Of a DNA stretch of 35,987 bases, positions 1 through 35,987 are shown piece by piece. The DNA comes from a virus. Location: positions 1 to 35,987 of IMG/VR virus record IMGVR_UViG_3300045988_152087, one strand, 5' to 3'. Every line of letters begins with the position of its first letter. Within the stretch, counting starts at the first letter, position 1. The notes under the pieces are model-generated. The model searched no databases. It was not told the origin of the DNA and saw nothing but the letters and a program-made list of their open reading frames with translations. The position numbers and the translations under genes are program-made.

Positions 1-101
1 GGTGGGCTCGGGCTTCTTGGGCTCGACCGAGGGGGTCGGGGTGGGCTCGGGCTTCTTGGGCTCGACCGAGGGGGTCGGGGTGGGCTCGGGCTTCGGGGTC
101 A
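1..101 (-). repeat. Tandem 39-bp coding repeat (PTPSVEPKKPEPT linker) at the window start
   Basis: The unit ccgaccccctcggtcgagcccaagaagcccgagcccacc (reverse strand) occurs 2+ times. The same unit family ends the window at 35895-35987. Confidence 0.85.
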
Positions 102-1158
102 GGTTCGCGCCGGCGTCAACGCCGAAGCCCTGCTGCACCACCACGCAAGCGCCCTCCTTCATGGCACCACCGTCGAGCTCGACGTGGTTGAAGTACTGGC
201 GCCCCACGACGGCTTTGTCAGGCTGGCCCTGCTCGGCGGCGAAGCGGGTGGGGTAGCGCAGCTGGTAGTTGGTGTTGTTCTGGAACGGGCCGGTCACGGT
301 GTAGGTGGCGGAGTGTCCGTCCTCGCCGTAGGTGGCCGTGATGGTGAACTCGCCGGCGGCGGCCGCGGTGCCGAGCGTCTCATCGACGCCGCTCACGCGG
401 CGGGACCACGTGGTGGCACCGGGCTCGTCGGTGATGAAGTTCATGCCATCGCCGAGGGTGTCGGTGAAGGTGATGGTCTGGGTGCTTCCGTCGAAGGTCT
501 TGCCGAGCTTGGCGGCCGTCTCGTCGTTGGCGCCGAAGTCGATGCCCCAGTCAACGCGGGTGCCGCCGGCGTAGGGGTTGGAGCCCCACTTGGCGAGGGT
601 CCACTGGCTGTCCTGCGGGCCCACGACGCCCTCGCCGTTGGGCGTGGGGACCTGCGTAACGACGCCGTTGGCGGTCATGGTCGCGGGGCCAGCGGCGAGG
701 ACCTTGGACGCGACCACGAAGGCGAACCCGGTGCCATGGAAGTCCGTGTACCCCTCGGCGCGGAGGTTGCCCACCGCGTCTCCGAAGGTGCAGGTGACGT
801 CGTGGCTGCCCAGCTCGCAGGTGCCGATCTCGACGTCGCGGCTGGCGACCGACATGGTGAGAGGCTTGGTCTCACCGGAGCCGAGGGCAGAGAAGCTGTC
901 CCCGAGGCCGATGGTGAAGGTGTCGCCGGGCTTCGGGTCCCCGGACCAGCTGAAGCCGAGGCGTGCGTTGGACCAGAGGGTGAGGCCGCCGTCAACGGCC
1001 GCCCCAGTGCGGTCCACCCGCTGGAGAGTCAGGTCCGACACCGTGACCCGGGGGGTCTCCTCGGCGGCGGCCGAGCCCCAAGGGAGGAGGGCAAAGATGA
1101 GGGCGATGAGGAGGGATGCTGCGACGGTCAACCGCGTCGCTGTTCTTGTAGTGCTCAT
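1..1158 (-). CDS. Cell-wall-anchored surface protein, N-terminal part (signal peptide + MSCRAMM-like domain + PT-rich repeats); runs off the window start
   Basis: Reverse strand translation from ATG at 1158-1156 gives MSTTRTATRLTVAASLLIALIFALLPWGSAAAEETP..., a signal peptide with an AxA cleavage site. It is followed by a ~330-aa Ig-like domain with a TITFTDTLGDG motif resembling the MSCRAMM N2 TYTFTDYVD motif, then (T)PKPEPTPTPSVEPKKPEP repeats. The frame stays open for all 386 codons down to position 1. The long plus-strand ORF 184-1335 is its antisense shadow. Confidence 0.8.
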   Translation of the reverse strand, partial: MSTTRTATRLTVAASLLIALIFALLPWGSAAAEETPRVTVSDLTLQRVDRTGAAVDGGLTLWSNARLGFSWSGDPKPGDTFTIGLGDSFSALGSGETKPLTMSVASRDVEIGTCELGSHDVTCTFGDAVGNLRAEGYTDFHGTGFAFVVASKVLAAGPATMTANGVVTQVPTPNGEGVVGPQDSQWTLAKWGSNPYAGGTRVDWGIDFGANDETAAKLGKTFDGSTQTITFTDTLGDGMNFITDEPGATTWSRRVSGVDETLGTAAAAGEFTITATYGEDGHSATYTVTGPFQNNTNYQLRYPTRFAAEQGQPDKAVVGRQYFNHVELDGGAMKEGACVVVQQGFGVDAGANLTPKPEPTPTPSVEPKKPEPTPTPSVEPKKPEPT

Positions 1159-1165
1159 GTGCTAG

Positions 1166-1210
1166 AGCATAAGAACGGCCCCGACACTGTGTCAAGTGCC
1201 GGGGCCGTTC
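1166..1210 (-). promoter_or_regulatory. Terminator hairpin with embedded sigma70-like promoter (module B) driving a leaderless surface-protein mRNA
   Basis: 15-bp stem 1173-1187/1196-1210 with one wobble and loop tgtgtcaa. On the reverse strand the loop holds TTGACA (1195-1190), then an 18-nt spacer, TATGCT (1171-1166), 7 nt (ctagcac), then ATG 1158. It lies directly downstream of the DUF2800 gene stop at 1229. Confidence 0.55.
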
Positions 1211-1228
1211 AGTTATTCGTGTCGTGTG

Positions 1229-2362
1229 TCACTCGTCCTTCACCAGAGTCGGGGCTGAGGTGCTCAGCTTCAGCAGGTCACCCACGGCGGCGTCCAGGGC
1301 CTTGCGGCCGCCCACGGCCTTCTCCAGCTTGCTGAGCGTGGCCGGCGAGCGGGTGAACGCCTCGTCCTCACTCAGCATCCCGAAGTCCACGAGTGCCTGA
1401 GCGGCCTCCTCGGTGACCGATCGCCGAGCTCGGCCGGGCTTCAGGTGCCAGCCAGGCAGCCCCTCCTCGGTGCCTGCCTGCCGGAGCGCCTCGCGGCGAA
1501 CCGCCTTGCACCAGCCCTCGACCGCCTCGACGGTGCCCATGGCCTCGGCCAGGGTGGCCGGTGAGTAGTCCACAGGGTCAGCGGTCAGCCCGGTCGCGGC
1601 GTCGAGGCCCACAGCCTCGGCGACGAACGCGGCCCGCTCGGGACACCACGGCGCCGCCGGGCAGAACAGGCACCCGCCCTCGCTGGGGACACGCGGCGCA
1701 CCCTCGATCTTGGTGGCTTCGGCCGCCGCGGCCAGCTCCCTGCCCCAAGCGTGCAGCGCCTCGGCAGTCATCACCGCCGTCGATGTGTGCCCACCATCCT
1801 TGTGCCTTGGCTGGACGATGGTCATCCGCACCTCGGAGATGTCCCGCTCCAGCTCGGCATCCTGAAGGGCACCGAGGGCGTAGCACCGCAGCTGCGGGTT
1901 GTCCTCAGCCTCGACGCGCACGCCCCGGCCGAACTTCAGGTCGAGGACGTGCAGCACGCCCTTGTCCGAGATGACCACGGCGTCGGCAGTGCCGTAGACA
2001 CCATCGATGACGAAGACCCGCTTCTCCAGCAGCAGCCTGGCGTGCTTGCGTCCGCCGAGCTCCTCCCAGGCATCGGACACCTTGTCAACGTAGGGCATGA
2101 CGCCGGCCTTCAGCTCGTTGGCGTCGTACTTCTCTCCGTACTCGGCCTTCCACTCCTTCAAGAGCGCGCCCTGGCCCTTCAGCTCGATGCGCTCCCTCAG
2201 GAGAATCTCGGCCAGGGCGTGGGCCGCCGTGCCCTCGGCCGCCGCCTCCGACGTGGTGTCATCAACGGGGCACGCCGCGATGGCTGCGACGGACCCAGGG
2301 CAGGTCATCCACCGCTTGGCCGCTGATGGTCCGAGCGTCGCGTGCGCTGCGGGGCCCGTCAC
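1229..2362 (-). CDS. PD-(D/E)XK nuclease, DUF2800/Cas4-like exonuclease with C-terminal Cys cluster
   Basis: GTG start. DLKFGRG catalytic-like motif and CLFCPAAPWC Cys cluster. This family typically accompanies DUF2815 and DNA polymerase in phage replication modules. The GTG start overlaps the upstream stop (GTGA). Confidence 0.75.
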   Translation of the reverse strand: MTGPAAHATLGPSAAKRWMTCPGSVAAIAACPVDDTTSEAAAEGTAAHALAEILLRERIELKGQGALLKEWKAEYGEKYDANELKAGVMPYVDKVSDAWEELGGRKHARLLLEKRVFVIDGVYGTADAVVISDKGVLHVLDLKFGRGVRVEAEDNPQLRCYALGALQDAELERDISEVRMTIVQPRHKDGGHTSTAVMTAEALHAWGRELAAAAEATKIEGAPRVPSEGGCLFCPAAPWCPERAAFVAEAVGLDAATGLTADPVDYSPATLAEAMGTVEAVEGWCKAVRREALRQAGTEEGLPGWHLKPGRARRSVTEEAAQALVDFGMLSEDEAFTRSPATLSKLEKAVGGRKALDAAVGDLLKLSTSAPTLVKDE

Positions 2363-2781
2363 AATGCCACCACCATCGCGGTAGCGGCGGCCACGTCCTC
2401 GTCCTTCAGCTCGGTAGCCCTGGCGGCCCCGAACTCCTGAAGGACCTGCGCGACCTCGGCGCGCTTGCCAGCCTTCAGGGCGCTACGCATGGCGTCGAGC
2501 AGCGCCTCGCGGGACCCAAGCTCCCCACCTGAGGTCTGCTCCGTGGAGGGGGCGGTCTCGGTAGGGGGGACGGGGGCCGGCCCCTCGGCCTTGGGCTCTT
2601 CGGCTGGCTTGTCCTTGCGGGGGGCACGGCGCTTCGGCTTGGGCGCCCCCTCGGCCGCAGCGGGGTCGGGCTTCTCAGCCGCAGCGGGGGCGCCGGAGGA
2701 GACGAACGGGGCGAGCGCCGCGGTGATCGCGGCCAGCTCGGCGGCGTCCGAGGGGGTGACGTGCAGTGTGATCTTAGCCAT
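2359..2781 (-). CDS. Hypothetical protein, Ala/Pro/Lys-rich low-complexity centre
   Basis: 140-aa ORF MAKITLHVTPSDAAELAAIT... with a weak AGGAA RBS. Its stop overlaps the downstream GTG start. Confidence 0.55.
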   Translation of the reverse strand: MAKITLHVTPSDAAELAAITAALAPFVSSGAPAAAEKPDPAAAEGAPKPKRRAPRKDKPAEEPKAEGPAPVPPTETAPSTEQTSGGELGSREALLDAMRSALKAGKRAEVAQVLQEFGAARATELKDEDVAAATAMVVAL

Positions 2782-2799
2782 CGTGGGTTCCTAACTGAG

Positions 2800-2836
2800 G
2801 TTGGGGTGCCAGACCTTTGCGGCCTGACACCCCAAC
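2800..2836 (-). promoter_or_regulatory. Intercistronic hairpin (9-bp stem) downstream of the primase gene, with a possible internal promoter just upstream
   Basis: gttggggtg (2800-2808) pairs with caccccaac (2828-2836) across a 19-nt loop. On the reverse strand TTGACA (2866-2861) is followed by ~18 nt and then a TATTGT-like -10. Confidence 0.35.
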
Positions 2837-2873
2837 AATATGACTGACGCTGTCGCCCTGTCAAGTTCTGTGG

Positions 2874-5255: not shown

Positions 5256-5833
5256 GATTTATCTCTCTCTAGGTTGTGGTCGGGGGTCCGTCACCCATCA
5301 AGGCGGGGCGGAGCGGCTTGGCCCGGACGCTACCATGATGGTGGGGAACCTTGCAAGGGGAAACGTTGCAACGACGCGGCGCTACTAGGTTGACTAGGTA
5401 AATGGGGCGAAATCGGTGAAACTTTGCGCGCCGTCAGGTAACGATTCGTTACCCTCGTGTCCCAGGTCATATGACCGAGCGGATATATCGGCGTCGTGAT
5501 CTACCCAACCGGGCGGAAGCGTGTCCGCTGGGCCCGAGATGGCGCGATTTCGCGCACCTAGCACGAACCTAGTGGACCCGGAATCGGCGGAATGACGCCA
5601 AAAAGTCCCCCCTTCTACTAACTACTACCTTCTTTCTATAGAGAGTAGAGAGAGAGAGTAAAGGAATGGTAAAGAAAAAGGGGGAGAGAACTATACGCGG
5701 GCGCGCGCGAGGCAGCGGCTTGTGACTGGGGTCACGCTGCACCGGGGCCGGCCCCCGCCAACGGTCGTGGGGGCGACCCACGTGGCGCGGACCACACTTG
5801 CGCGCTCAGCGCCCCATCGAGTACGCTGGAGCC
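5256..5833. promoter_or_regulatory. Divergent control/origin-like region between the leftward primase operon and the rightward HNH/late genes
   Basis: Perfect palindromes GGTAACGATTCGTTACC (5437-5453), GGTCATATGACC (~5465-5476), CGTTGCAACG (~5351-5360) and GCGCGATTTCGCGC. CTAGGTTG occurs twice and ACCTAG twice. A polypyrimidine-to-polypurine tract spans ~5590-5690 and is markedly AT-rich. Dyad GTGACTGGGGTCAC lies at 5722-5735. TTGCGC-N18-TACGCT-N6-ATG sits before the HNH start. Confidence 0.6.
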
Positions 5834-6265
5834 ATGACGCCGACCATGCCGCCCACGAGATGCACCCAGCCGGGGTGCACGCGCTTGACCCCCTCCGGCG
5901 CATCGAGGTGCCCCACCCACGCCAGCCGGACCCCCTCGGCACACACCCGGTGGCTCCAAGCCCACCCCTCCCACCGAGCCCCCTGGGCCTCCCTGCGTAC
6001 CCGGACCCTCCAGGCACACCCCTCCTGCCAGTGGCCGGGCTGCACCGCCCCGAGCACCGAGGTGGACCACATCGTGGAGATCGCCGACGGGGGCGCATTC
6101 CTCGACGAGGGAAATGTTCAGGCTCTTTGCCGTGAGCACCACGAGCGCAAGACAGCAATCGCAGCTGCGAATCGAAAAGCGAATAGCACTCGGCTCCGCA
6201 AGGCGAAGGGCAAAGCCGTTAAGCGCAAGCCGCGCATTCCACGCGACGCGACTTGGGTCGAGTAA
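5834..6265 (+). CDS. HNH endonuclease (terminase-associated)
   Basis: CQWPGC...VDHIVEIADGG...NVQALCREHHERKT is an HNH motif. The ORF-track start at 5798 is a TTG; the ATG at 5834 (MTPTMPPTRC...) is preferred. Position next to terS fits cos-type phages. Confidence 0.8.
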   Translation: MTPTMPPTRCTQPGCTRLTPSGASRCPTHASRTPSAHTRWLQAHPSHRAPWASLRTRTLQAHPSCQWPGCTAPSTEVDHIVEIADGGAFLDEGNVQALCREHHERKTAIAAANRKANSTRLRKAKGKAVKRKPRIPRDATWVE

Positions 6266-6585
6266 AGCCTCAACAATCGAGGCACACACAAAATCAAAAA
6301 AATACAAAACTGATTCAACGTGGAGTCGAGAAACCGAAACGGCGACGAAGCCGAACGGGGGATTGAAAAAGCCGGAGGGGCGTTCCACAAAAACAAAACA
6401 CGCCGCCAGGGGGGCGCGCCCGTCATTCCAAGCCAAAAACTCGGCATTCGGCCCCTCTTGCGCACGGGCGCGAGGCGTGCTAGGCTGATCCCACCGCCGG
6501 GCGCAGACCCACATCGAGGATCGAAGCTTGCACTACGGGGTAGCGTCCGGCGGCTCCCTACCGATCAGATTCCGAGGAGCCGACG
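6266..6585. other. A-tract-rich non-coding region; candidate cos / terminase recognition site
   Basis: Runs such as caaaatcaaaaaaatacaaaac, gaaaccgaaacgg, gattgaaaaagcc, cacaaaaacaaaacac and agccaaaaactc sit in an otherwise ~67% GC genome, between HNH and terS. The terS RBS gaggag lies at ~6574. Confidence 0.45.
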
Positions 6586-7065
6586 ATGAGCCGCAAAGCC
6601 GGTCAGAGCGTGAGTGACGCCCGCCTTCCGCGTGGGCTCCGGCTCGTGGACGACTCGGTGCCGGAGAAGGCCACGATGCACACCGCGGCGGCGTTGCCGC
6701 GGGACGCCGATCGGCTCGCGCCCCCCTCGACGCTGAGGGCGGACCTGCACCCCCTGTGGGACGAGATCACGGGCTCGCTCCACGCGAGCGGCCTCCTGGC
6801 CGCCGCGGACACCACGATGGTGGCACTCCTGGTTCAAGAGCTAGAGCTCTACACAATCGCGGTTGGCACCGCCCGCGCAGAGGGCGTGATCCTCTACAGC
6901 GAGAAGGGCACCCCGGTCGCCAACCCGGCGTTTTCCATCGCCTCGACTCACGCCCGCGTAATCGAGGGGCTGTGCAAGACGATGGGCCTTACCTTCGTGG
7001 CCCGTGCGGCGATGGACGCACCAGAGTCTGTGAAGGCGAAGGCCGGCAACCCGTTCGCCGTCTAG
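6586..7065 (+). CDS. Terminase small subunit (P27 family)
   Basis: 159 aa, immediately upstream of the large terminase. Sequence character matches P27-family terS (LHPLWDEI..., VANPAF). Confidence 0.7.
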   Translation: MSRKAGQSVSDARLPRGLRLVDDSVPEKATMHTAAALPRDADRLAPPSTLRADLHPLWDEITGSLHASGLLAAADTTMVALLVQELELYTIAVGTARAEGVILYSEKGTPVANPAFSIASTHARVIEGLCKTMGLTFVARAAMDAPESVKAKAGNPFAV

Positions 7066-10960: not shown

Positions 10961-11635
10961 ATGAAGCGAACCGTTCAGAAGCACGCCCGCGCTTGTATCA
11001 CCGTGGGTACAAGCAAGGCCGCGGCCGGCCGACGTCGTGAGGACGAGAAGCCCGAGGACGAGAAGCCCGAGGACGAGAAGCCCGAGGACGAGAAGCCCGA
11101 GGATGAGAAGCCCGAGGACGAGAAGCCCGAGGACGAGAAGCCTGAACGCAAGTCGGAGCCCGGCACCTTCACGGCCCTCGTCGCCGTCTTCGGCAACGTG
11201 GACTCCGACGGAGAGGTGACCGAAAAGGGCGCCTTCACCGAGGCGCTCGCCGAGCGCCCCACGGTGCCCATCATGTGGAGCCACGGCTACGGCACCTCCG
11301 ACATCGTGGGCTACTCGACTAAGGCAGAGGAGACCGACGAGGGGCTGTTGCTGGAGTGGAAGGCGCTCGACACCGAGATCGGCCGCTCTGTCGCCGAGCT
11401 TCTCGAGGTCGGAGCCATCACCGACTTCTCGTACTCCGCGATCGTCGAGGACTACACCGTGGAGAAGTCCGACGACGGCGAAATCCGCCACCTCACTAAA
11501 CTGGACCTGTGGGAGGCCGGGCCGTGTCTGCGCGGTGCGAATCCTCTCGCCAAGCTGAAGTCTCAGGACGCACCTGAGACTGACGACGCCGCGCAGCGGA
11601 CCGCCCGTGCCCGGCTGGCCCTCCTGGGCCTCTGA
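10961..11635 (+). CDS. Prohead protease (HK97/S78 family) with N-terminal acidic tandem repeat
   Basis: FGNVDSDGEVTEKGAFTEAL...PIMWSHG matches the HK97-type protease core. The N-terminus carries (EDEKP)x7. Confidence 0.8.
   Translation: MKRTVQKHARACITVGTSKAAAGRRREDEKPEDEKPEDEKPEDEKPEDEKPEDEKPEDEKPERKSEPGTFTALVAVFGNVDSDGEVTEKGAFTEALAERPTVPIMWSHGYGTSDIVGYSTKAEETDEGLLLEWKALDTEIGRSVAELLEVGAITDFSYSAIVEDYTVEKSDDGEIRHLTKLDLWEAGPCLRGANPLAKLKSQDAPETDDAAQRTARARLALLGL
11038..11142 (+). repeat. Perfect 15-bp tandem repeat x7 (gaggacgagaagccc; one unit gaggatgag...) encoding (EDEKP)7
   Basis: Seen directly in the sequence. It is in frame within the protease N-terminal extension. Confidence 0.95.
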
Positions 11636-23165: not shown

Positions 23166-24068
23166 ACACCCGAAGCGCCGTCCGCCATCGAGGTGGGCGG
23201 CGCTTCTGTACCTTCGCAGATCACGATCAACATCGGTGGCGCTTCGTCCGCCCCGGCCCCGCAGAAGCCGGTGGACCTGAGCGGCTACGTCCGCAAGGAG
23301 GATCTCCCGGCTGCACCGGACCTCAGCGGCTATGTCCGCAAGGAGGAACTCCCGGCTGCACCGGACCTCAGCGGCCTGGTGCGGAGGACCGAGCTCGACG
23401 AGACGCTGAAGGGCTTCACCAAGGCGTCCCAGACGGCCGCGATTGCCGACTCCATCCGGGCCACCCGAGCCAAGGCGGAGTCAACGGCGGCGACGGCGGA
23501 GGGGGTCGCCAAGGACATCGCCGCCACGCACGCCGCGGTGGTGGACCTGACCCGGCAGCCTCGCATCGTACGCCTCGACACGGGGGCTCCGGTGCCAGCC
23601 GGCACACCCCGCGGCGCCCTGATCTTCCGCACGGACAAGCCGCTGTCCTCCTCGGACCGGGAGTTCCCCCCGCTGAACGAGTGGTCACTGCTCAACGTCA
23701 CGGCCGAGCCAGACGGATACCACCTTCCCGGCGTCGGAGGCACCATCGTCCCGAAGGTGGACCAGATGAAGCCCTCCGACGGCCAGTGGGAGATCACGCT
23801 CACGTACTCGTGGCACGGCAACTTCGGCGAGCCGGAGATGACGTCCTATGTGTACAACGGCCGAACGTTCGAGGAGTTCGGAGTCACCAAGCTGGATCAG
23901 GGAGCCAAGCTGGCTGACTGGACGCTGAAGGCCGGAGACCGGGTGACCGCGAAGCTGACGGTGACGCCCCGCGAGGATGGGAACGCGACGTCGCTGTGGG
24001 CGCCCTGGATCGAGGCGCCGGCGAACGGCTTCGTGGTCCACGACGTCACGGTGCGCCGGGTGGCCTAG
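23148..24068 (+). CDS. Tail fibre-like protein with DLSGYVRKE(D/E)LPAAP x3 repeats
   Basis: 306 aa. The repeats are fibre-type, and a beta-rich C-terminal domain follows. Confidence 0.5.
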   Translation: MADTDKTPEAPSAIEVGGASVPSQITINIGGASSAPAPQKPVDLSGYVRKEDLPAAPDLSGYVRKEELPAAPDLSGLVRRTELDETLKGFTKASQTAAIADSIRATRAKAESTAATAEGVAKDIAATHAAVVDLTRQPRIVRLDTGAPVPAGTPRGALIFRTDKPLSSSDREFPPLNEWSLLNVTAEPDGYHLPGVGGTIVPKVDQMKPSDGQWEITLTYSWHGNFGEPEMTSYVYNGRTFEEFGVTKLDQGAKLADWTLKAGDRVTAKLTVTPREDGNATSLWAPWIEAPANGFVVHDVTVRRVA

Positions 24069-25361: not shown

Positions 25362-25508
25362 ATGAACGACCAGCCCAAGATTGACGCCGCCGACATCATC
25401 AACCGCCTCTCCGCTGAGCTCTCGGCCATGACCACGCGGGCCGTGCTCGCGGAGTCGCGTGTCGCCGAGCTGGAGCGCGAGCAGGCTGAAGGCGGCGCTG
25501 AGTCCTAA
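25362..25508 (+). CDS. Small coiled-coil protein (48 aa), not in the ORF track
   Basis: MNDQPKIDAADIINRLSAELSAMTTRAVLAESRVAELEREQAEGGAES. Its TAA overlaps the downstream ATG (TAATG). Confidence 0.4.
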   Translation: MNDQPKIDAADIINRLSAELSAMTTRAVLAESRVAELEREQAEGGAES

Positions 25509-27058
25509 TGGCGAAGCTGCAGACATCCCCTAAGGGGAGCGTGTGGGCCGAGGTCGAGGACGACCCGGCCCTCTCCTCTGCGGCCAAGCTGGCGATCGCC
25601 ACGCTTCAGGCCGCGGGGAAACTGCCCGTCGGGACGAACCGCATCATTGACTCCGGCGCCCTACAAGACCCGGCTGCACAGACCATCGCGGCCGGCGTGG
25701 GGCGCTTCCTGAAGATCGAGGCCAACCAGATCATCGCCAGCAACGCCAACTTCGACGAGGCGGTGGCGAAGAAGCTGTGGTCGCAGATCGTCACGGCCAA
25801 GGAAGGCACCTTCGACAAGATCAAGGCGAACATGCTCGCCGTCGGGGCGCTCGACGGCCAGATCATCACGGGTGCCACAGTGCAGACCTCGGGGTCTGGC
25901 CGCGGCCGGGTGGTGCTGGACTCGAACGGCCTCCGGCTTGTCAGCGCAGACGGGTCAACCGACAAGTTCCGCATCGATGCCTCCACTGGAGACATCGACA
26001 TCACCGGCCGCCTCATGTCGAAGGACGATTGGTCCTTCGCCCGGTTGTCGGACATCTCGTCAACAGACCCCAGCGGTCCCGTTCGGTATGGCATGGGGCT
26101 AGTCTTTAACCGGTCTGTGGCGCCACTGCGCTACCCCGGCGGGATCATGCTCAAGCAGAATGAGCGGGGGGAGCTCCAGACCATCATCGCGCCGCCGGCA
26201 TCTAACTTCGATGTGTCCGGCCACTTCACGGTCGGGAACAGGGAGATCGGGTGGGGCGGAAATGCGGCGGCCTTCCGGGTCAACGGCGGGGCTATCGACT
26301 TCCAGGTGAACGGCCGCACGCTGGAGATGTACATCGGTCAGGCTGGAATCTCCTTCCAGAACGCACTCAACAACACCCGGATCGTGGCCCAGGGCCAGCG
26401 AAATGAGGCGTTCTTCTTCGCCGGCGACCGGTACACCACGGACAACGGCGTGCTCGCCGGCTGGGACCACTGGCGCATCTCCAGCGTCGGGGGCGGCCGC
26501 AACCTGGGGTTCGCCTCGGGGAGCAACGCTGGTACGTACATGTGGTCGAAAGCCAATGGCAACTACGCCTGCATCAACGGGGACGGATTCTTCACCACGG
26601 GGAAGACCAAGAGGTTCTCCATGCACGTCCCCAAGATGTCTGAAGAGCGGGGTGGCGCCATGCTTCAGCATATGGCAACCGAGTCCCCCTTCGATGGCAT
26701 CGAGTACTGGAACGTCGTCGAGCTCGACTCGAATGGGGAGGCATCCTGGGTCTTGCCGGATTACGTGCCCGCGATCGCGTCTCGGCGCGCCCCGTGGTGC
26801 GTGTTCTCGTCCTCTGACCGAGGCGCGTCTAGTGCCAGGCTGGAGCGTGGGGAGGACCGGTTCATCGCCCACGTGACCGGTGAGCCCGGCGCGTCGGTGT
26901 CGGTGCTCGTGAAGGGCGCTCGAATCATCGAGATCGAGGGCGCCGCGGGCGGGACTTGCAAGTGGCAGGACTTCGGTGACGGCGAAGCGCCGTGGTACAC
27001 CCTGGACCTGGGGGTGGAGGGCGCGGGCCCCCACAAGAGTGGAGAGATCATCTGGTGA
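25508..27058 (+). CDS. Minor tail / tail fibre (receptor-binding) protein
   Basis: 516 aa. IEANQIIASNANFDEAVAKKLWSQIVTAKEGTFDKIKANMLAVGALDGQIITGATVQTS is a typical actinophage minor-tail N-terminus. A Gly-rich beta C-terminal domain follows. Confidence 0.6.
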   Translation: MAKLQTSPKGSVWAEVEDDPALSSAAKLAIATLQAAGKLPVGTNRIIDSGALQDPAAQTIAAGVGRFLKIEANQIIASNANFDEAVAKKLWSQIVTAKEGTFDKIKANMLAVGALDGQIITGATVQTSGSGRGRVVLDSNGLRLVSADGSTDKFRIDASTGDIDITGRLMSKDDWSFARLSDISSTDPSGPVRYGMGLVFNRSVAPLRYPGGIMLKQNERGELQTIIAPPASNFDVSGHFTVGNREIGWGGNAAAFRVNGGAIDFQVNGRTLEMYIGQAGISFQNALNNTRIVAQGQRNEAFFFAGDRYTTDNGVLAGWDHWRISSVGGGRNLGFASGSNAGTYMWSKANGNYACINGDGFFTTGKTKRFSMHVPKMSEERGGAMLQHMATESPFDGIEYWNVVELDSNGEASWVLPDYVPAIASRRAPWCVFSSSDRGASSARLERGEDRFIAHVTGEPGASVSVLVKGARIIEIEGAAGGTCKWQDFGDGEAPWYTLDLGVEGAGPHKSGEIIW

Positions 27059-27065
27059 GGACGAT

Positions 27066-27413
27066 ATGGACCTGATTGAAATCACGCCACACGTGGTTCC
27101 CCTGCTCACCGCGATTGTGGCGGCTGCAGCCGCGATGGGGGGCGCGTCCCTGACTCGCAGGACTCAGCGAGAGGCGAGCAAGGTACAGATTCTTGACATC
27201 ACGGTGCAGCACCTCGCCGACCGGGTTGAGGCACTGGAGAAGTCGGTCGCCGTCGCGGAGTCCCGCCGTGACGAGGCTGTGGAGTCGGAGCGGGAGGCGC
27301 ACGCGGTGAAGTGGATAGCCATCGACTACGCCGGCCGACTACTCCGGTGGGCCCGAGCTCGAACGGATGACGTCCCCCCTGATCCGCCGGTCGAGATCGA
27401 GAAGCACCTGTGA
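27066..27413 (+). CDS. Membrane (1 TM) + coiled-coil protein; second holin/lysis-accessory candidate
   Basis: ATG 27066 (MDLIEITPHVVPLLTAIVAAAAAMGG...) is preferred; the ORF-track start at 26976 overlaps the upstream gene. It is the last gene of the rightward operon. Confidence 0.45.
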   Translation: MDLIEITPHVVPLLTAIVAAAAAMGGASLTRRTQREASKVQILDITVQHLADRVEALEKSVAVAESRRDEAVESEREAHAVKWIAIDYAGRLLRWARARTDDVPPDPPVEIEKHL

Positions 27414-27456
27414 GACGAAGACCCGCTGCACCATCACGGTGCAGCGGGTCTTCGTC
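27414..27456. terminator. Bidirectional terminator between the convergent late (+) and early (-) operons
   Basis: Perfect 19-bp inverted repeat gacgaagacccgctgcacc / ggtgcagcgggtcttcgtc with a 5-nt loop. A ttcgtcttcc T-rich tail follows on the plus strand. Confidence 0.8.
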
Positions 27457-27467
27457 TTCCCGGGGTG

Positions 27468-27914: not shown

Positions 27915-28210
27915 AGCTTGGTGTCCTTTCTCTGGATGAACATGCCTGAGTCGATGTCGATGAGGAGGCTGGCGAAGTAGTCGTACCCGTCGTAGGTGAG
28001 ATCGGGGATGACGCCGTGGGCGACGATCTCGCCGTCGGTGCGGATGCTGAAGGCAACGGAGTCGTTGTCCAGCACCTCGGCGTAGAACACGGAGCGGCTG
28101 AGCTGGTTCGGCTTGATACCGACCACGTGCCCGCCCTCGCGGACCAGATGGCCTTCGTACCTGAGGGCCATGTCCATCGACTGCATGATCTGGAGCGTGT
28201 CGTTTGCCAT
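27911..28210 (-). CDS. Hypothetical protein
   Basis: 99-aa ORF of ordinary composition. Its stop overlaps the downstream GTG. Confidence 0.5.
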   Translation of the reverse strand: MANDTLQIMQSMDMALRYEGHLVREGGHVVGIKPNQLSRSVFYAEVLDNDSVAFSIRTDGEIVAHGVIPDLTYDGYDYFASLLIDIDSGMFIQRKDTKL

Positions 28211-28278
28211 GGCTCAACCATATGCACGAGCACGGCGGCCACACAAGTTATGTGGCCGCCGTGCTTACGTGATGCTTG

Positions 28279-30172: not shown

Positions 30173-30504
30173 TGGGAAACCACCTCCGCGAAGTCCCGCG
30201 CGAACCAGTCCGCCGCCTTGCTCGCGAGGCCACCACGCCCCGTTCGGGAGTAAGCGTGAATGCGACCCGACTCCGTGGTGGTCCGGCCAGTCGGTGACCA
30301 CTCAATCGCTCGCAAGGTCCAGTGTCCGCGGTTATCCACGCCGAAGCTCTTCGAGGTGCGCGTCGCCCCTCTCTTCTCGTCAAAGAAGACGCAAACGCTC
30401 TTCGGCGTGACTCGGATGTCCTTGACGTGGGCAGGGAGCACGGCTCGGAGTGCCCGCTCCATCTCCTTGGCAAAGTCCTCGATGACGATGGTTTGTGTCG
30501 CCAT
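30169..30504 (-). CDS. Hypothetical protein
   Basis: ATG 30504 is preceded by strong RBS aaggagg. 111 aa, MATQTIVIEDFAKEMERALR... Confidence 0.55.
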   Translation of the reverse strand: MATQTIVIEDFAKEMERALRAVLPAHVKDIRVTPKSVCVFFDEKRGATRTSKSFGVDNRGHWTLRAIEWSPTGRTTTESGRIHAYSRTGRGGLASKAADWFARDFAEVVSQ

Positions 30505-30559
30505 TGGGTTCCTCCTTGGTTGGGTTGTATTGGGCATATCATGCGCAGATGTTCTGCGA

Positions 30560-32524
30560 CTAGTCAAGTTCATCCGCGTCCGTGAGCTTCCTGTAACGGT
30601 CCACGACGCCGCCGGCAGCGCGCAGGTGCAGGCCCGGCGCCCACGGCAGGTCGGAGCTCATGATGTCCCGAACCTTGTGGAACGCCTCGATGCCGGCGGA
30701 GGACGGCTTTCCGGCCGCGTAGTCCCACCACTCAGCAGGCCCCTTTATGAGCACCTCATCGTGGACGTGGGCCACGATCTCGAACCCCGCGCGATCGAGC
30801 CGCACCATTGCAGATGCCAGGCAGTCGCGGGCCACGGCCTGCACGAGGTTCTCCGTCAGGCGACCGCCGAACGTCTCGACGGCGATGCCGCGGCGCGCGT
30901 CCCAGAACGCCACGGACGGGCGGCCCCAGCGGTCCTGCGTCGCACGGATGCCTCGGTAGATCAGGGTTCGGCCGCTCGGCAGCAGCATCCTGCGGAAGGC
31001 TCGGCCGAAAGAGTCCTGCCCGGCGACGATGCGCTCCCCGCCAGTTCGGAACTCGCGGCCGAGCTGGTCCCACAGCGCCGTGATGTGGGGGTTCGCTCGG
31101 CGCCATGCGTCCACCTGGGCCTGAAGCGCCTCGTCGCTCGGGCCGTCGCCTGCGAACACGCGCAGACCGTTCGGACCCGCGCCGTAGCCGCAGCCGAGCA
31201 GGGCCGTCTTACCCTCCTGGCGAGTCATCTCGTGGCCGACGGCGGAGCTCATGCGCGATGCCGTCTCGACGTAGAGGTCACGCTTGGCCTCGTAGGCGTC
31301 TAGCACCCATTGCTCGCCGGCGAGCCAGGCAAGCACGATAGCCTCGATGGAGGTGTAGTCGCAGACGATCAGGGGGCCGGCAATGACCGAGCGCACGCAC
31401 GCCGCAACCTCGACCGGGGTTACCAGCTCGCCGAGCAGGCACTTGTCGAGCACGTCGTCAACCGTCTCTCCCTCGGGCAGATGCTCCCGGGGGAGGTTCT
31501 GCGGCTGGAAGCCGCTCCCGCTCCAGCGGCCGGTGTGGGCGCCGAGGTAGCGGAGAGTCCCACGCGCTCGGTTGCCGGCGCCCCGTCGCAGCTCGGCCGC
31601 CGCGAGCTTCTTCCCCGCGACGCGGGCGGACGCCACTCGCAACTCAGCGACGCGACGCACCTCGGCCGGTAGCGACTCGTCCGCGGCCAGGCGCTCAACG
31701 GTCTCTCGGCGTAGATCGGGGAGGTTGATCCCCTTCGACGCGAACCACGTGCACAGCTGGGCGGTGCTGTTCGGGTTGGCGAGGCCGGTGATGCTCTTCA
31801 ACTCCTCCGCCTGTCGGCTCACGTTGTCGTCCTCGCAGCGCTGAAGGGCGTGCAGCAGCTCGACATCGAGGGGGAGGCCGGCATCCGTGATCTTCTCGGC
31901 GGTGAGCTCGACGGCGCGCTCCAACGCCGAGGGGGACAGGTCGATAGCCTGCCACTCGCGCTCCAGCGCGCGGTGCGCCTGCCGGAGGACCTCGACGTCC
32001 TGGATGCCGTAGGCGCGGAACTCAGTCCAGCGCTCGGGGTCATCGCTCGGCATGCGTCGGCCGCCGCGGAACGTCTTGGTCGCCGGCTGCGGCTTGGCGA
32101 AGCGGTTAATGAGGAGCGTCCCGGCCGTGTCCTTGTCCTCACACTTCAGCGCCTTGGCGAGGCTCTTCAGCGAGCTGGGGAGGCCGAGGAGGTACGCCCA
32201 GTGCATGGTGTCGATCCACTCGGCGGGGTCGAGGTAGTTGCCAGTGGCGCGTCCGTGGGTGTACGCGCTGACCTGGATTCGGTCGAACGCAGCGTTGTGA
32301 GCGACCTTGGTAACCGCAGGGTCCTGGATGAGGCCCAGGAACTCACCCCACAGCTCGGGGTCATGGCCCTCGGTGGTGGGCCCCTCGGTGATCTTCACAG
32401 GCTTGTCGTCGAGCGCCCACATCGCGAGGGTGATGCAGGCTTCAGGGCTCTCAGCGTAGCGGTGCGCGCCGGCCGAGATATCGATGTCGGAGTAGGTCTC
32501 AGTGTCTAGGTAAAGGGTTGGCAT
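30560..32524 (-). CDS. DNA polymerase I family (3'-5' exonuclease + family-A polymerase)
   Basis: Exo I motif LYLDTETYS, motif B RQEGKTALLGCGYGAG and motif C HVHDEVLI are present. The alternative start GTG 32590 overlaps the DUF3310 stop (GTGA) and would place hairpin 32538-32584 inside codons 3-19. Confidence 0.8.
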   Translation of the reverse strand: MPTLYLDTETYSDIDISAGAHRYAESPEACITLAMWALDDKPVKITEGPTTEGHDPELWGEFLGLIQDPAVTKVAHNAAFDRIQVSAYTHGRATGNYLDPAEWIDTMHWAYLLGLPSSLKSLAKALKCEDKDTAGTLLINRFAKPQPATKTFRGGRRMPSDDPERWTEFRAYGIQDVEVLRQAHRALEREWQAIDLSPSALERAVELTAEKITDAGLPLDVELLHALQRCEDDNVSRQAEELKSITGLANPNSTAQLCTWFASKGINLPDLRRETVERLAADESLPAEVRRVAELRVASARVAGKKLAAAELRRGAGNRARGTLRYLGAHTGRWSGSGFQPQNLPREHLPEGETVDDVLDKCLLGELVTPVEVAACVRSVIAGPLIVCDYTSIEAIVLAWLAGEQWVLDAYEAKRDLYVETASRMSSAVGHEMTRQEGKTALLGCGYGAGPNGLRVFAGDGPSDEALQAQVDAWRRANPHITALWDQLGREFRTGGERIVAGQDSFGRAFRRMLLPSGRTLIYRGIRATQDRWGRPSVAFWDARRGIAVETFGGRLTENLVQAVARDCLASAMVRLDRAGFEIVAHVHDEVLIKGPAEWWDYAAGKPSSAGIEAFHKVRDIMSSDLPWAPGLHLRAAGGVVDRYRKLTDADELD

Positions 32525-32537
32525 GGCTATAGAATAT

Positions 32538-32584
32538 GACGAAGCCCCCGGTGTCCGCAAGTTCTGCGGCCCGGGGGCTTCGTC
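32538..32584 (-). promoter_or_regulatory. Hairpin (14-bp perfect stem gacgaagcccccgg/ccgggggcttcgtc, nested inner stem) with TTGCGG-N18-TATTCT-N6-ATG leaderless promoter candidate
   Basis: Seen directly. The stem sequence matches the hairpin at 12888-12929. On the reverse strand it is followed by aTATTCTatagccATG. Confidence 0.45.
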
Positions 32585-32586
32585 AC

Positions 32587-33068: not shown

Positions 33069-33637
33069 ATCAGACCCGCGAGGGGGTCCTCGTCAGCGGC
33101 CGGCTGACTGGCGGACGGCTGGGCGGGGCCGAACAGGCTCTCTGCCGAGGCGGCTCCCCCGCCGAAGCGCTCACCACCACCGAGGATCTGGACCATCTGG
33201 AGCCCGAAGGAGACCCCCTTGGACCCATCCACCTCGTAGGCGAAGGCACGAACCGCGACGCGGGCCTTCTGGCCGCCGTATACCTCCTCGGCGATCTGCT
33301 CGTCGGAGAACGGGAGGAGGTCCGTGCCCACGATCGGCACTCGGCGGATCGAGGAGGCGTTGAAGGTGATGTGCCCGGCCTGCTCCTCGTAGTCGCTGTT
33401 GTCCCCGTCCTTCAGCGGGGTACGCAGGCTCTTCGGGACCTTGGTGCCCCACTTCTCGGCGGCGGCCTCGCGGACGGCGCCCTTCAGGGCCTCGATGGTG
33501 GTGGTGTCACTCTTGGGGACCATGACGGCGGTGGAGACCTTGGGCTTGCTGTTGCCGTTGCGGGCCTCCAGCTCCGCCAGGTGGGGCCAGGACAGGGTTG
33601 CAGGGCCAGTGGTGACGTCGACGCTCATGCGTTTTCC
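33065..33637 (-). CDS. DUF2815 family protein (phage ssDNA-binding-like)
   Basis: ATG 33637 with RBS gagaggaaaa. The N-terminus MSVDVTTGPATLSWPHLAELEA matches the DUF2815 start. The longer ORF-track call to 33874 would engulf the overlapping HTH ORF. Confidence 0.65.
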   Translation of the reverse strand, partial: GKRMSVDVTTGPATLSWPHLAELEARNGNSKPKVSTAVMVPKSDTTTIEALKGAVREAAAEKWGTKVPKSLRTPLKDGDNSDYEEQAGHITFNASSIRRVPIVGTDLLPFSDEQIAEEVYGGQKARVAVRAFAYEVDGSKGVSFGLQMVQILGGGERFGGGAASAESLFGPAQPSASQPAADEDPLAGLM

Positions 33638-33867
33638 TCTCGGGTTTGGTTGGTGTTGGGGCGACGGCGGGCGAACTTGCCCGCCCAGCGCATCGCTGTC
33701 TGCGTGGTGACTCCGACCTCTCGGGCGATCATGGGCCACGGGAGGCCCAGCTTGTGGAGCCGGTTGAGCGCCCGGCGGCGCTCGGTGGTGAAGCGGGAGA
33801 GACTCGTCTCCTGCTTCTCGATCAGGTTGCGGAGGTTGTCCACCTCCTTGCGGATATCGTCGTCCAT
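33625..33867 (-). CDS. Small HTH DNA-binding protein
   Basis: 80 aa; LGLPWPMIAREVGVTTQTAMRWAGK is a helix-turn-helix. It overlaps the DUF2815 start by 13 nt. Confidence 0.5.
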   Translation of the reverse strand: MDDDIRKEVDNLRNLIEKQETSLSRFTTERRRALNRLHKLGLPWPMIAREVGVTTQTAMRWAGKFARRRPNTNQTREENA

Positions 33868-33870
33868 GGC

Positions 33871-35325
33871 TCAAATATATGCGAGGTCATCCGAATCGGT
33901 CAAGTTGACACCCCCGTGTTCCTCATCACTCAGGCCGAGCGTGGTGAACACCGTCCGCTGGATGTCCGCCTTGCGGCCCAGCGCGTCCCAGATCGCGGAA
34001 GCGATAGACGGCTCTCCGCGGCCGTACACCGGCACGTTGAACTGGCAGGACACACTCTCCGCCGTCTGGCCTGGCCGGGCGAGTCGGGCGTTAGCCTGCT
34101 CCCACAGCTCCAGCGACCACGGCAAGCAGGACCACACCAGCGACTCACCCCCGAACTGGAGGTTGAGCCCGTGACCCGCTGACGCCGGGTGGGCGATAAG
34201 CACGTCAAGGTTGCCGGCGTTGAACGCCGCGCGGTCCTCGGCGCGCTTGGCCGAGCCGATGCGCATCTCCCGCAGCTGAGCCCGCAAGTACGGTTCCTCG
34301 TGCCTGAACCACGTCATCACCAGAACGCCGCGGCCAGTGACCTTCAGGCGAGCGCGCACGGCCGAGGCCGTGTAGTCCAGAGCCGGCCGAATGCGGTCCA
34401 CCTGAACCAGCTCGGGCTCAGCATCGGGGTCGAGCGGCGGCCGATACCAGATCGCCCCAGTGGTGAGCTGGTGCATCAGGTTCGCCACGGCACCCGGCCC
34501 CGACGTGTAGACCTCGCGCCCGTCGGGCAGGTGCGTCACGCCGTCGGCGAGCAGCTCCCTGCTCATGCGGACCGCCTCGCACCCCATGGTCGGGGTGAGC
34601 GCCTGGTAGGCCACCCCGGGAAGCACGAGCCCCTCGCCGGCCTCGGCGTATCGCATCACGTCGGACGCCTTGAGGATAAGCCGCCGCATCGCCCCGGGGC
34701 GCGGCTCGCGGCCGACTCGGGCGCCTGTGGGGATCATCCGCCCCTCGGTGAGGTACTCGTCGCGGGCACGGGTGACCGTCTTGCCAAGGCGCTCCCCACC
34801 GTCGAGCATCCGCACCAGCGACCACACCCCGATCGGATCATGGCCTGGGGTGCCGGTCAGCAACCACAGACGGTCGGCCGCCGAGGCCAGCTCCCGCAGC
34901 GCTCGGGCACGCTGGGACTCACCCCGGCTCGCCGAGGGGGTCATGTACCCGCTGGCCTCATCGACCACTACCGTTCTCCACGTGGTGTCGCTGAGCACGG
35001 CATCCCGGATCGAGGCGCTGGAGAGCACCACGACGTCGGCCAGCGTGTCGTCCAGAGCGGCGCGGCGCTTCGACGCTGGCGTGCGCGGGGCGGCCTCTAC
35101 GACGAGCGGGATGCTGCGGCGCTCGGCCTCGTCAGACCACGTGGACTCACTGACCGTCGGGGGTGCCAGGACGAGGGCTGGGAAGGAGTCAGCGGGCAGG
35201 TCCGCGAGCGCCCGCAGCGTCGTCCACGTCTTTCCGGTGCCCATGCCCGCGATGAGGAGACCCCTCGGGTGGCTGACGAGCCATTCCCGGGAGGTCTCCT
35301 GCTCCGGTGTGAGGGCCGCTGTCAC
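33871..35325 (-). CDS. SNF2-family helicase (DEAD/DEAH-like ATPase + helicase C domain)
   Basis: Walker A GMGTGKT, VVVDEASGY and helicase-C motif HPASAGHGLNL are present. GTG 35325 overlaps the upstream stop (GTGA). Confidence 0.8.
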   Translation of the reverse strand: MTAALTPEQETSREWLVSHPRGLLIAGMGTGKTWTTLRALADLPADSFPALVLAPPTVSESTWSDEAERRSIPLVVEAAPRTPASKRRAALDDTLADVVVLSSASIRDAVLSDTTWRTVVVDEASGYMTPSASRGESQRARALRELASAADRLWLLTGTPGHDPIGVWSLVRMLDGGERLGKTVTRARDEYLTEGRMIPTGARVGREPRPGAMRRLILKASDVMRYAEAGEGLVLPGVAYQALTPTMGCEAVRMSRELLADGVTHLPDGREVYTSGPGAVANLMHQLTTGAIWYRPPLDPDAEPELVQVDRIRPALDYTASAVRARLKVTGRGVLVMTWFRHEEPYLRAQLREMRIGSAKRAEDRAAFNAGNLDVLIAHPASAGHGLNLQFGGESLVWSCLPWSLELWEQANARLARPGQTAESVSCQFNVPVYGRGEPSIASAIWDALGRKADIQRTVFTTLGLSDEEHGGVNLTDSDDLAYI

Positions 35326-35735
35326 AGCGGTAGACCCCTCCGCACGAGGCATGCGACCATGCCGAGGTTCAGCACGTCATCACCGTCGGGCAGGCCGTCG
35401 GTGCGGTGGGCGAAGTCGTCGAGGCACAGCAGCAGCTCATCGGCGCTGGCCGTCTCTCCGGCCGCGCAGCACTCGTAGGCAACGCGGGCCGGCTCGCCCT
35501 GGGCGCCGATGGGGTCTCCGAGGCTGCGGTCGATCTCGCGGCACAGCACGAGGGCCGACTCGCAGACCGATGCGACGCGCTCAGCGCTCGCCGGCGCCGC
35601 CCCCTGGTCGAGGGCGAAGTGCAGCGAGGACGTCAGCGCCCGCGCCTTCTGCGCCGCGCGCATGTGGCCATAGGGGATGCTTGCCAGCTCAGCGGCGGAT
35701 GCCCGCTGAACCATCTCAAATGTTGGGTTGCTCAT
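35322..35735 (-). CDS. Hypothetical protein, first gene of the early leftward operon (leaderless start)
   Basis: ATG 35735 (MSNPTFEMVQ...) lies 7 nt downstream of the TATGCT -10 of promoter A. The ORF-track start at 35771 would lie inside the promoter. Confidence 0.5.
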   Translation of the reverse strand: MSNPTFEMVQRASAAELASIPYGHMRAAQKARALTSSLHFALDQGAAPASAERVASVCESALVLCREIDRSLGDPIGAQGEPARVAYECCAAGETASADELLLCLDDFAHRTDGLPDGDDVLNLGMVACLVRRGLPL

Positions 35736-35742
35736 GTGCCTA

Positions 35743-35786
35743 AGCATAGAATCGGCTCCCCGCCTTGTCAAGAGGGGAGCCGATTC
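35743..35786 (-). promoter_or_regulatory. Terminator hairpin with embedded sigma70-like promoter (module A)
   Basis: 13-bp perfect stem 35749-35761/35774-35786 with loop gccttgtcaaga. On the reverse strand the loop holds TTGACA (35771-35766), then a 17-nt spacer, TATGCT (35748-35743), 7 nt (taggcac), then ATG 35735. It lies directly downstream of the surface-protein stop. Confidence 0.6.
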
Positions 35787-35799
35787 AGTTCCTATTGGG

Positions 35800-35987
35800 T
35801 CAGTGGTTGCGGCGGTTGCGGACGAGGAGTCCCGCGCCGACCAGGGCCGCGGCCGTGAGCAGTGCTCCGCCGGCCGCGATTCCGGTGTGGGCGAGCTGTG
35901 GGGTCTCGGCCGAGGGGGTCGGGGTGGGCTCGGGCTTCTTGGGCTCGACCGAGGGGGTGGGCTCGGGCTTCTTGGGCTCGACCGAGG
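35800..35987 (-). CDS. Cell-wall-anchored surface protein, C-terminal part (PT repeats + LAHTG sortase motif + TM + basic tail); enters from the window end
   Basis: Reverse translation gives ...SVEPKKPEPTPSVEPKKPEPTPTPSAETPQLAHTGIAAGGALLTAAALVGAGLLVRNRRNH*. LAxTG is the class-E sortase signal of Actinobacteria. Confidence 0.8.
   Translation of the reverse strand, partial: SVEPKKPEPTPSVEPKKPEPTPTPSAETPQLAHTGIAAGGALLTAAALVGAGLLVRNRRNH

Follow-up and report, generated by a model that had tools for sequence, protein, structure and literature searches.

In a stretch of 35,987 nt that makes up positions 1 to 35,987 of the IMG/VR virus record IMGVR_UViG_3300045988_152087 (called the window below), the leftward gene arm is interrupted by at least four junctions of about 60 nt, in each of which a GC-rich hairpin and promoter-like hexamers lead directly to the start codon of the next gene. 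We consider it likely that these modules are intrinsic-type terminators fused to promoters of the host sigma-A type, which would yield leaderless mRNAs, and that they act as stop-and-restart junctions splitting the arm into separate units. Two of them, designated B and A, enclose a gene for a putative surface adhesin. The window has a GC content of 67% and a phage-like gene content.

Anatomy and distribution of the modules

Read on the minus strand, module B has the form GAACGGCCCCGGCAC-TTGACA-CAGTGTCGGGGCCGTTC-T-TATGCT-CTAGCAC-ATGAGC and module A the form GAATCGGCTCCCCTC-TTGACA-AGGCGGGGAGCCGATTC-TATGCT-TAGGCAC-ATGAGC. The inverted repeat of module B (1173-1210, minus strand; 16 pairs, loop TGACAC) starts 19 nt past the stop codon (1231-1229) of a DUF2800 gene and would serve as an intrinsic-type terminator of that upstream unit. 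Its promoter and start (1156-1195, minus strand) comprise TTGACA at 1195-1190, an 18-nt spacer formed by the 3′ arm of the stem, TATGCT at 1171-1166, and, after 7 nt, the ATG at 1158-1156, which has no Shine-Dalgarno sequence and is the predicted leaderless start of the adhesin mRNA. The inverted repeat of module A (35749-35786, minus strand; a perfect core of 13 bp, 16 pairs in all, loop TGACAA) starts 15 nt past the adhesin stop and is the putative terminator of the adhesin unit. The promoter and start that follow (35733-35771, minus strand) consist of TTGACA at 35771-35766, a 17-nt spacer, TATGCT at 35748-35743, 7 nt, and the ATG at 35735-35733, which opens a 137-aa gene without a family match, the next gene being that of an SNF2 helicase.

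The two stems lie in an identical 16-pair register when counted from TTGACA. The first T of this hexamer is paired in both, and the loop is therefore TGACAN, while a one-base difference between the stem and the -10 hexamer gives the spacers of 17 nt (A) and 18 nt (B). The B hairpin folded with -39.9 kcal/mol (z -7.5) and the A hairpin with -36.8 kcal/mol (z -5.7). The pattern TTGACA-N16-19-TATGCT occurs in the 36-kb window at modules A and B only (2 matches vs 0.01 expected from shuffles), the looser TTGAC-N17-20-TANNNT-N5-8-ATG gave 3 matches (0.01 expected), and on these counts a chance similarity of the modules was rejected. A consensus promoter scan also picked A and B, each with 10/12 matches, and at the sequence level both have the -35 hexamer, the spacer of 17 +/- 1 bp, and the TANNNT element of sigma-70/sigma-A promoters. 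The shared architecture of A (35786-35733) and B (1210-1156), which an initial annotation had described, was thus confirmed by the minus-strand reading, the motif statistics, and the folding z-scores. The near-identity it had noted after the stem also held, as TATGCT and GCACATGAGCA are common to both modules. The shared sequence goes beyond that of the other promoters of the genome, including AACTGAA before the stem and, within GCACATGAGCA, the first codons of two unrelated proteins, and it fits paralogy of the promoter part.

To find further modules, TANNNT-N5-8-start codon was searched for ahead of open reading frames (ORFs) with coding-type GC content at third codon positions (GC3), and the 50 nt upstream were folded. 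Four strong cases were obtained (B, A, D, and C), all on the minus strand. In module D (32522-32586, minus strand), the hairpin (32585-32537) stands directly past the stop of the DUF3310 gene with TTGCGG (32560-32555) as a -35-like hexamer in its loop, followed by an 18-nt spacer, TATTCT (32536-32531), 6 nt, and the ATG at 32524. The gene opened by this ATG encodes DNA polymerase A (MPTLYLDTETY...), and the shorter start is supported by homologues, the alignments of which begin at residue 1-4. The stems of module D covary among relatives, for example GACGAAGCCCCCGG vs GACGACCCCCTCAGG, where the stem is replaced wholesale with pairing kept. Module C (28208-28265, minus strand) has a hairpin at 28265-28229, the -35-like TTGTGT at 28246-28241, an 18-nt spacer, TATGGT at 28222-28217, and, after 6 nt, the ATG at 28210 of a 99-aa gene. 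The architecture is therefore not tied to the adhesin pair, since it recurs at the polymerase and 99-aa genes. Module A does not mark the start of the early operon as first proposed; it is internal to a leftward block that starts at VapE (5255).

The minus strand carries three more predicted promoters of this family, two of which have no hairpin. Promoter E (33865-33903, minus strand; TTGACC, 18 nt, TATATT, TGAGCC, ATG 33867) precedes the gene of an 80-aa helix-turn-helix (HTH) protein and lies inside the last codons of the SNF2 gene, the stop codon TGA of which stands between the -10 hexamer and the ATG. Both hexamers were kept in 19 distinct relatives, while the spacer varies. Promoter F (30502-30567, minus strand) is leadered: it overlaps the polymerase stop and consists of TTGACT, 18 nt, CATGAT, and a leader with GGAGG ahead of the ATG at 30504. 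At the junction after VapE (2781-2864, minus strand) the order is promoter and then hairpin, with TTGACA at 2864-2859, 16 nt, CATATT, a conserved hairpin at 2836-2800 that covaries in the related locus L007, a Shine-Dalgarno-like AGGA, and the ATG at 2781. A start about 7 nt past this -10 hexamer would fall inside the 5′ arm of the hairpin. Transcripts begun there could escape a terminator that would stop read-through from VapE. Another allele, TTGACA-N17-TACGCT with a leader, stands after VapE in the relatives L002, L006, L009, L188, and L203.

Taken over the arm, every strong junction hairpin is paired with a restart promoter, and the hairpins start 1-19 nt past a stop codon. The ATG follows TANNNT by 6-7 nt in A, B, C, D, and E, which leaves no space for a Shine-Dalgarno sequence. 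Within the family, A and B form a subclass with TATGCT-N5-ACATGAG and AACTGAA before the stem, while C, D, and E share TA(T)NNT-(T/A)NAGCC-ATG. The start codon of the adhesin gene is independently anchored, as it is the first one past an in-frame TAG two codons upstream and has the signal peptide directly after it, and that of the polymerase gene is supported by the homologues.

Stem pairing and the proposed stop-and-restart mechanism

Relatives were collected by three routes, namely a DUF2800-based search of viral contigs (9 close loci), homologues of the adhesin (L115 and L116), and a pattern scan of metagenome contigs. In a separate scan of viral contigs, the short pattern TATGCTNNNGCACATGAGC gave 36 matches, close to chance (a rough estimate for 16 fixed bases predicts a few tens), and only the four from contigs of this phage family were used (L084, L088, L104, and L112). 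The collection comprised 33 distinct module sequences in total, and the stems were counted on 13 A-type and 14 B-type distinct sequences. Pairs were counted on separate ungapped alignments of A and B; a joint MAFFT alignment set the two in different registers.

In the A-type stems, 98.1% of the cells were paired and four pairs had changed on both sides, while in the B-type stems 98.7% of the cells were paired and five pairs had changed on both sides, these B-type values being reached in 0/500 shuffles. Sliding the partner column lowered stem pairing to 32-65%. Counted in the gene-sense orientation, the stem cells held 43 G-U pairs but only 3 A-C pairs, and this excess argues that pairing is selected on the sense RNA and not on duplex DNA or the antisense strand. 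The hairpins share several features of intrinsic terminators, being GC-rich, placed just past a stop codon, and kept by compensatory changes of the sense strand.

Independent evidence on conservation comes from the stems and from the loci that were fetched via protein similarity (L001-L009, L115, and L116). In these loci, the B site has TTGACA or TTGACG as the -35 hexamer and TATGCT as the -10 hexamer, while the spacer formed by the stem varies. TTGACG replaces TTGACA in L001 and L008, and the adhesin gene of L001 is intact. The -10 hexamer of the A site is TATGAT or TATGGT besides TATGCT. The outgroup, composed of L007, L115, and L116, has module B unchanged, and its A site carries a canonical U-tailed hairpin, AAAACTGAAGAGCCCCAGCG...CTTCAGTTTT, followed by a separate promoter of the form TTGACA/TTGACT-N17-TATGAT/TATGGT-N7-ATG. 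Module A thus does not have its embedded form in all relatives, and the separation of the elements in the outgroup suggests that the hairpin has the role of a terminator and the hexamers that of a promoter. On this comparison, the embedded form appears to be a compaction of a separate terminator and promoter.

According to the mechanism we propose, the RNA of the upstream gene would end at, or be protected by, a 16-bp GC-rich hairpin with UUCUUAU or UUCUAU, acting as an intrinsic-type terminator or a 3′-end barrier, with the U-rich tail partly supplied by the AT-rich -10 hexamer. The sigma-A RNA polymerase of the host would then recognize TTGACA, which lies in the hairpin loop, and TATGCT, just past the stem, with the 3′ arm as the spacer of 17-18 bp; transcription would begin 7 nt beyond TATGCT, at the A of the start codon. 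As this start lies beyond the hairpin, the new transcript would contain neither hairpin nor leader and would escape the terminator. Leaderless mRNAs are common in Actinobacteria. In Corynebacterium glutamicum, they make up 33% of the mRNAs, with TAnnnT 3-11 nt before the start site (PMC3890552). Between B and A, the adhesin gene would be an autonomous, monocistronic, moron-like accessory unit, and the 11-20 nt that the modules share (TATGCT...GCACATGAGCA) could be a substrate for precise loss of the cassette. For the arm as a whole, this predicts six leftward units that end at a hairpin and resume from a host-type consensus promoter, with leaderless mRNAs arising at four of the restarts; termination, transcription start sites, leaderless translation, and the timing of expression are all predictions from the sequence. 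A further step, which we regard as doubtful, is that the modules are coupled devices: transcription arriving from upstream would determine when the next promoter fires, as the hairpin forms and the polymerase is released directly over the -35 and -10 elements. The units would then be timed in sequence without a dedicated regulator, and the junction would be a portable cassette boundary at which accessory genes such as that of the adhesin are gained, swapped, or shed.

Several observations weigh against the stop-and-restart reading. The sequence 3′ of the stem is UUCUUAUGCU in B and UUCUAUGCUU in A, the U tail lying partly within the stem and being shared with the -10 hexamer, so the U-tract is imperfect and reaches 5 U in 7 only when the bottom GAA/UUC pairs count as tail. 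A consensus terminator scan called none of modules A, B, C, and D, and termination at some of the hairpins could be leaky or factor-dependent. The start of the 137-aa gene is less certain because an alternative in-frame ATG lies inside TATGCT, four codons upstream. As for the comparison of relatives, the loci numbered L117 and above were fetched by a pattern that fixed TTGACA, TATGCT, and ACATGAG, so the invariance of these motifs there is by construction, and the cells counted for covariation are not phylogenetically independent.

The same imperfect U-tracts and negative terminator scan would fit a leftward arm that is transcribed as one long operon, in which the hairpins are leaky attenuators, RNase barriers, or elements that stabilize 3′ ends after processing, and internal promoters add to the expression. 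In that case, the adhesin and the replication genes would share a transcript, and the adhesin would not be insulated. The genes from 5255 to 27468 are all co-oriented and tightly packed, and promoters E and F have no hairpin, as might be expected of such an operon. However, each strong hairpin of the arm stands exactly at a gene junction together with a restart promoter, an arrangement that would be needless if read-through were the rule, and the A site of the outgroup has a canonical U-tailed terminator. Moreover, leaderless starts need a 5′-end that is defined by a promoter. On RNA that reads through from upstream, four genes (those of the adhesin, the 137-aa protein, the polymerase, and the 99-aa protein) would be left without a ribosome-binding site, and this suggests that they are expressed mainly from the promoters. 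We therefore consider both the long operon and the co-transcription of the adhesin that it implies to be rather unlikely.

That the inverted repeats act as DNA is a much weaker proposition. They could be operators for a dimeric DNA-binding regulator of the phage or the host that occludes the -35 hexamer, or supercoiling-sensitive cruciforms, since the palindromes are centered on the -35 hexamer and the HTH protein is encoded nearby (33867-33625; HTH_23). The extended -35 context AACTTGAC also recurs, and AACTTGNC has 5 matches vs 1.6 expected, a number reached in 1/100 shuffles. Yet the arm sequences differ among A, B, C, and D within one genome and drift among relatives with pairing kept, whereas a shared operator would conserve its sequence. 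The 43:3 ratio of G-U over A-C pairs corresponds to A-C mismatches in the complementary strand, which would be unfavorable for a cruciform and irrelevant to binding of the duplex. This possibility thus seems very improbable.

History of the adhesin cassette

The adhesin gene runs off position 1 of the window and resumes at its end. The N-terminal 386 codons (1-1158, minus strand) encode a signal peptide, a Big_8 Ig-like domain (Pfam, 3.9e-06), a DUF7926 domain (Pfam, 1.6e-28), and the start of Pro/Thr-rich repeats, and the C-terminal part (35801-35987, minus strand) encodes further repeats, an LAHTG sorting motif, a hydrophobic segment, and an RNRRNH tail before the stop codon at 35803-35801. 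The N terminus is MSTTRTATRLTVAASLLIALIFALLPWGSAAA and the C terminus LAHTGIAAGGALLTAAALVGAGLLVRNRRNH. With the signal peptide, the LAxTG motif, the hydrophobic segment, and the basic tail, the product has the features of a sortase-anchored protein of the LPXTG type (LAXTG variant), the variant presumably corresponding to class E sortase specificity. The adhesins of the relatives end in LAHTG or LARTG followed by a similar tail. The closest cellular homologues are DUF7926 proteins of Actinomyces naeslundii (42-43% identity), while a sequence search of the PDB with the adhesin gave no match. Both ends of the window lie inside the Pro/Thr-rich tandem repeat (1-94 and 35921-35987; units of 33/39 nt encoding PSVEPKKPEPTPT repeats), and when they are joined the adhesin frame is one base short. 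The window is therefore a contig, either circular or permuted, the break of which lies in the repeat. Related contigs of about 36 kb (L002, L003, and L006) end at the same place in the repeat.

At the sequence level, the adhesin gene has its own predicted promoter (B) and terminator (A), in agreement with the initial annotation, as it lies exactly between two conserved modules the hairpins of which covary. All relatives with sequence across the site have both modules and the adhesin, except L008, L009, L155, and L188; in the more distant genomes L115 and L116 the gene, the product of which is 64% identical, is at the same site. In L155 and L188, which show 88-93% nucleotide identity in the three flanking genes compared, the adhesin is cleanly absent and a single B-type module is joined directly to the 137-aa gene, with the crossover inside TATGCT...ACATGAGCA. 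In L008 (1921-2347) and L009 (6083-6460), internal microhomology deletions leave 42-57 codons, joining the signal peptide to the C-terminal repeat and sorting region; the junction in L008 is at the shared sequence CCGAAGCCCG. The adhesin gene is thus a dispensable, accessory one. L155 has an extra 147-aa gene (1835-2278) between the DUF2800 gene and the single module, overlapping the DUF2800 stop; the C-terminus of its product weakly resembles a 157-aa protein encoded after the L007 adhesin (35% over 54 residues, pairwise E 2e-06), and no match was found to the 137-aa protein of the window.

The single-module relatives without the adhesin could be taken as survivors of an ancestral state, and the initial annotation had proposed that the adhesin gene was inserted between the DUF2800 gene and the following operon by duplication of the module. 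An ancestral single module between the DUF2800 and 137-aa genes would account for the one B-type module of L155 and L188 joined to the 137-aa gene and for the AACTGAA, TATGCT, and GCACATGAGCA common to A and B. Such relatives do exist, but they do not look ancestral: in neighbor-joining trees of SNF2, DUF2800, and the polymerase, L155 and L188 are placed apart, each in a subclade of phages that carry the adhesin. The phages of the outgroup (L007, L115, and L116) are adhesin-bearing as well, with the gene at the same site. Two independent secondary deletions are therefore more parsimonious than an insertion by duplication. The adhesin does not look newly imported either: it has diverged in step with the flanking genes, and its GC content (69.5%) and GC3 (0.91-0.92) are like those of the neighboring genes (GC 69-70%, GC3 0.86-0.88). 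Furthermore, the loss recurs by other routes, as in the internal deletions of L008 and L009. The proposed insertion was thus not borne out, and we judge it improbable, while an older one that predates the common ancestor of every relative sampled is possible. The losses in L155 and L188 look like precise deletions across the 11-20 nt that the two promoters share.

Genome context and comparison with known systems

The phage is an uncultured, siphovirus-like one of roughly 36 kb, and its host is most probably an oral Actinomyces, since the nearest cellular homologues of the adhesin are the DUF7926 proteins of A. naeslundii. A scan of one genome per species with a longer module pattern gave 22 matches, all in unrelated taxa and none in Actinomyces, and thus no direct host assignment. 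No prophage copy was found in 185,579 representative genomes (one genome per species), and no integrase, repressor, or excisionase was detected among the ORFs of the window by Pfam and PHROGs scans, suggesting that the phage is non-lysogenic and may be virulent. Among 50,697 phage records, neither a megablast of 12 kb, run in search of cultured relatives, nor a tblastn search with the adhesin gave a match, and the best hits of the DNA polymerase, in phages of Glutamicibacter, Brevibacterium, and Corynebacterium, reached only 39% identity. The window has no Rfam family and no tRNA by ARAGORN.

The rightward arm contains, in order, an HNH gene (5798-6265, plus strand), the small and large terminase, portal, capsid, and tail genes, an amidase, and a holin-like ORF, and ends near 27058. 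The leftward arm is a co-oriented minus-strand block of about 14.5 kb, the first gene of which, that of the VapE primase-helicase (5255-2874), is preceded by a non-coding region of 540 bp. It is followed by a 140-aa gene, the DUF2800/PD-(D/E)XK nuclease gene (1229-2362, minus strand; Pfam DUF2800 1.6e-76), which is the last gene of the unit ending at module B, the adhesin, the 137-aa gene, and SNF2. The genes of the 80-aa HTH protein, an Enc34-type single-stranded DNA-binding protein, DUF3310, DNA polymerase A, and an exonuclease come next, followed by small genes up to 27468. The start of the gene for the single-stranded DNA-binding protein is at 33628, where it has a Shine-Dalgarno sequence of its own, and not at 33874, where the longer ORF begins. 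Between the convergent ends of both arms lies a perfect inverted repeat of 20 bp with a 5-nt loop (27413-27457), probably the final bidirectional terminator.

Some other features of the window are worth recording. The non-coding stretch between VapE and HNH (5258-5798) has low-GC CT-rich and AG-rich runs, such as CTCTCTCTCTACTCTCTATAGAAAGAAGGTAGTAGTTAGTAG, and a candidate promoter, TTGCAA-N18-TAGCGT, while that between HNH and the small terminase gene (6265-6586) is T-rich and may hold a cos site. Two in-frame tandem repeats were seen, one of a 15-nt unit x6.9 (11039-11142) in a 224-aa ORF after the portal gene, the other of a 45-nt unit x2.3 (23273-23375) in a 306-aa ORF after the amidase gene. 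A 516-aa ORF (25508-27058, plus strand) downstream of the amidase and holin-like genes has a strong coding-type GC3 and no Pfam or PHROGs match.

These phages of oral Actinomyces form an uncultured group, for which the arrangement provides a testable transcription map. Should it be confirmed, the 60-nt modules could be used as they stand in high-GC Actinobacteria, as parts that combine an insulating terminator with a promoter. In an apparently non-lysogenic phage, the MSCRAMM-like adhesin with its sortase signal would form a unit of its own, one that was repeatedly and precisely lost. As the phage may be virulent, this is an odd cargo, and one may ask what role a surface adhesin could have during lytic infection in dental plaque, where it might aggregate infected cells with new hosts or exclude other phages.

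The principles involved (morons, leaderless actinobacterial promoters, and hairpin terminators) are established already, and the finding refines known biology without adding a new category to it. The modules resemble the leaderless sigma-A promoters of Actinobacteria, as known from C. glutamicum (PMC3890552) and mycobacteria, in having TAnnnT a few nucleotides before the ATG, a TTGnca-like -35 element 16-19 nt away, and no Shine-Dalgarno sequence. They differ in the full consensus TTGACA, whereas the -35 elements of high-GC Actinobacteria are weak, and in the position of the -35 hexamer in the loop of the putative terminator hairpin of the preceding gene. With intrinsic (Rho-independent) terminators they share the GC-rich stem-loop directly past the stop codon and the compensatory changes of the sense strand, while their stem is long (16 bp) and their short U-rich tail overlaps the -10 hexamer of the promoter that follows. 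U-poor hairpin terminators have been reported for Actinobacteria. Overlapping terminator-promoter pairs are not conceptually new; in a literature search of incomplete coverage, no description was found of a -35 hexamer in a terminator loop repeated through a phage arm, nor of these phages.

The adhesin itself may be compared with PblA and PblB of the temperate Streptococcus mitis phage SM1, two tail-related proteins that arrive at the cell wall after lysis. Like these, it is encoded by a phage of an oral Gram-positive bacterium and would be located on the bacterial surface, where it might affect adhesion; unlike them, it has a signal peptide and an LAHTG sortase signal and resembles chromosomal Actinomyces DUF7926 surface proteins. 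A parallel in gene organization is offered by the morons, a term applied to the lambdoid phages HK97 and HK022 (PMC3594210). Like a moron, the adhesin gene is an accessory gene that is absent from close relatives, lies between essential genes, has its own predicted promoter and hairpin terminator, and encodes a factor of the host surface instead of a protein of the virion or of replication. It differs in that its base composition is the same as that of its neighbors, and expression from a repressed prophage, the hallmark of morons, seems unlikely in a phage for which no integrase, repressor, or prophage copies were found. Moreover, its flanking signals belong to the repeated junction design of the phage itself and were not brought in with the gene. 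Altogether, the modules and the adhesin that they enclose amount to a neat variation on an established phage design.

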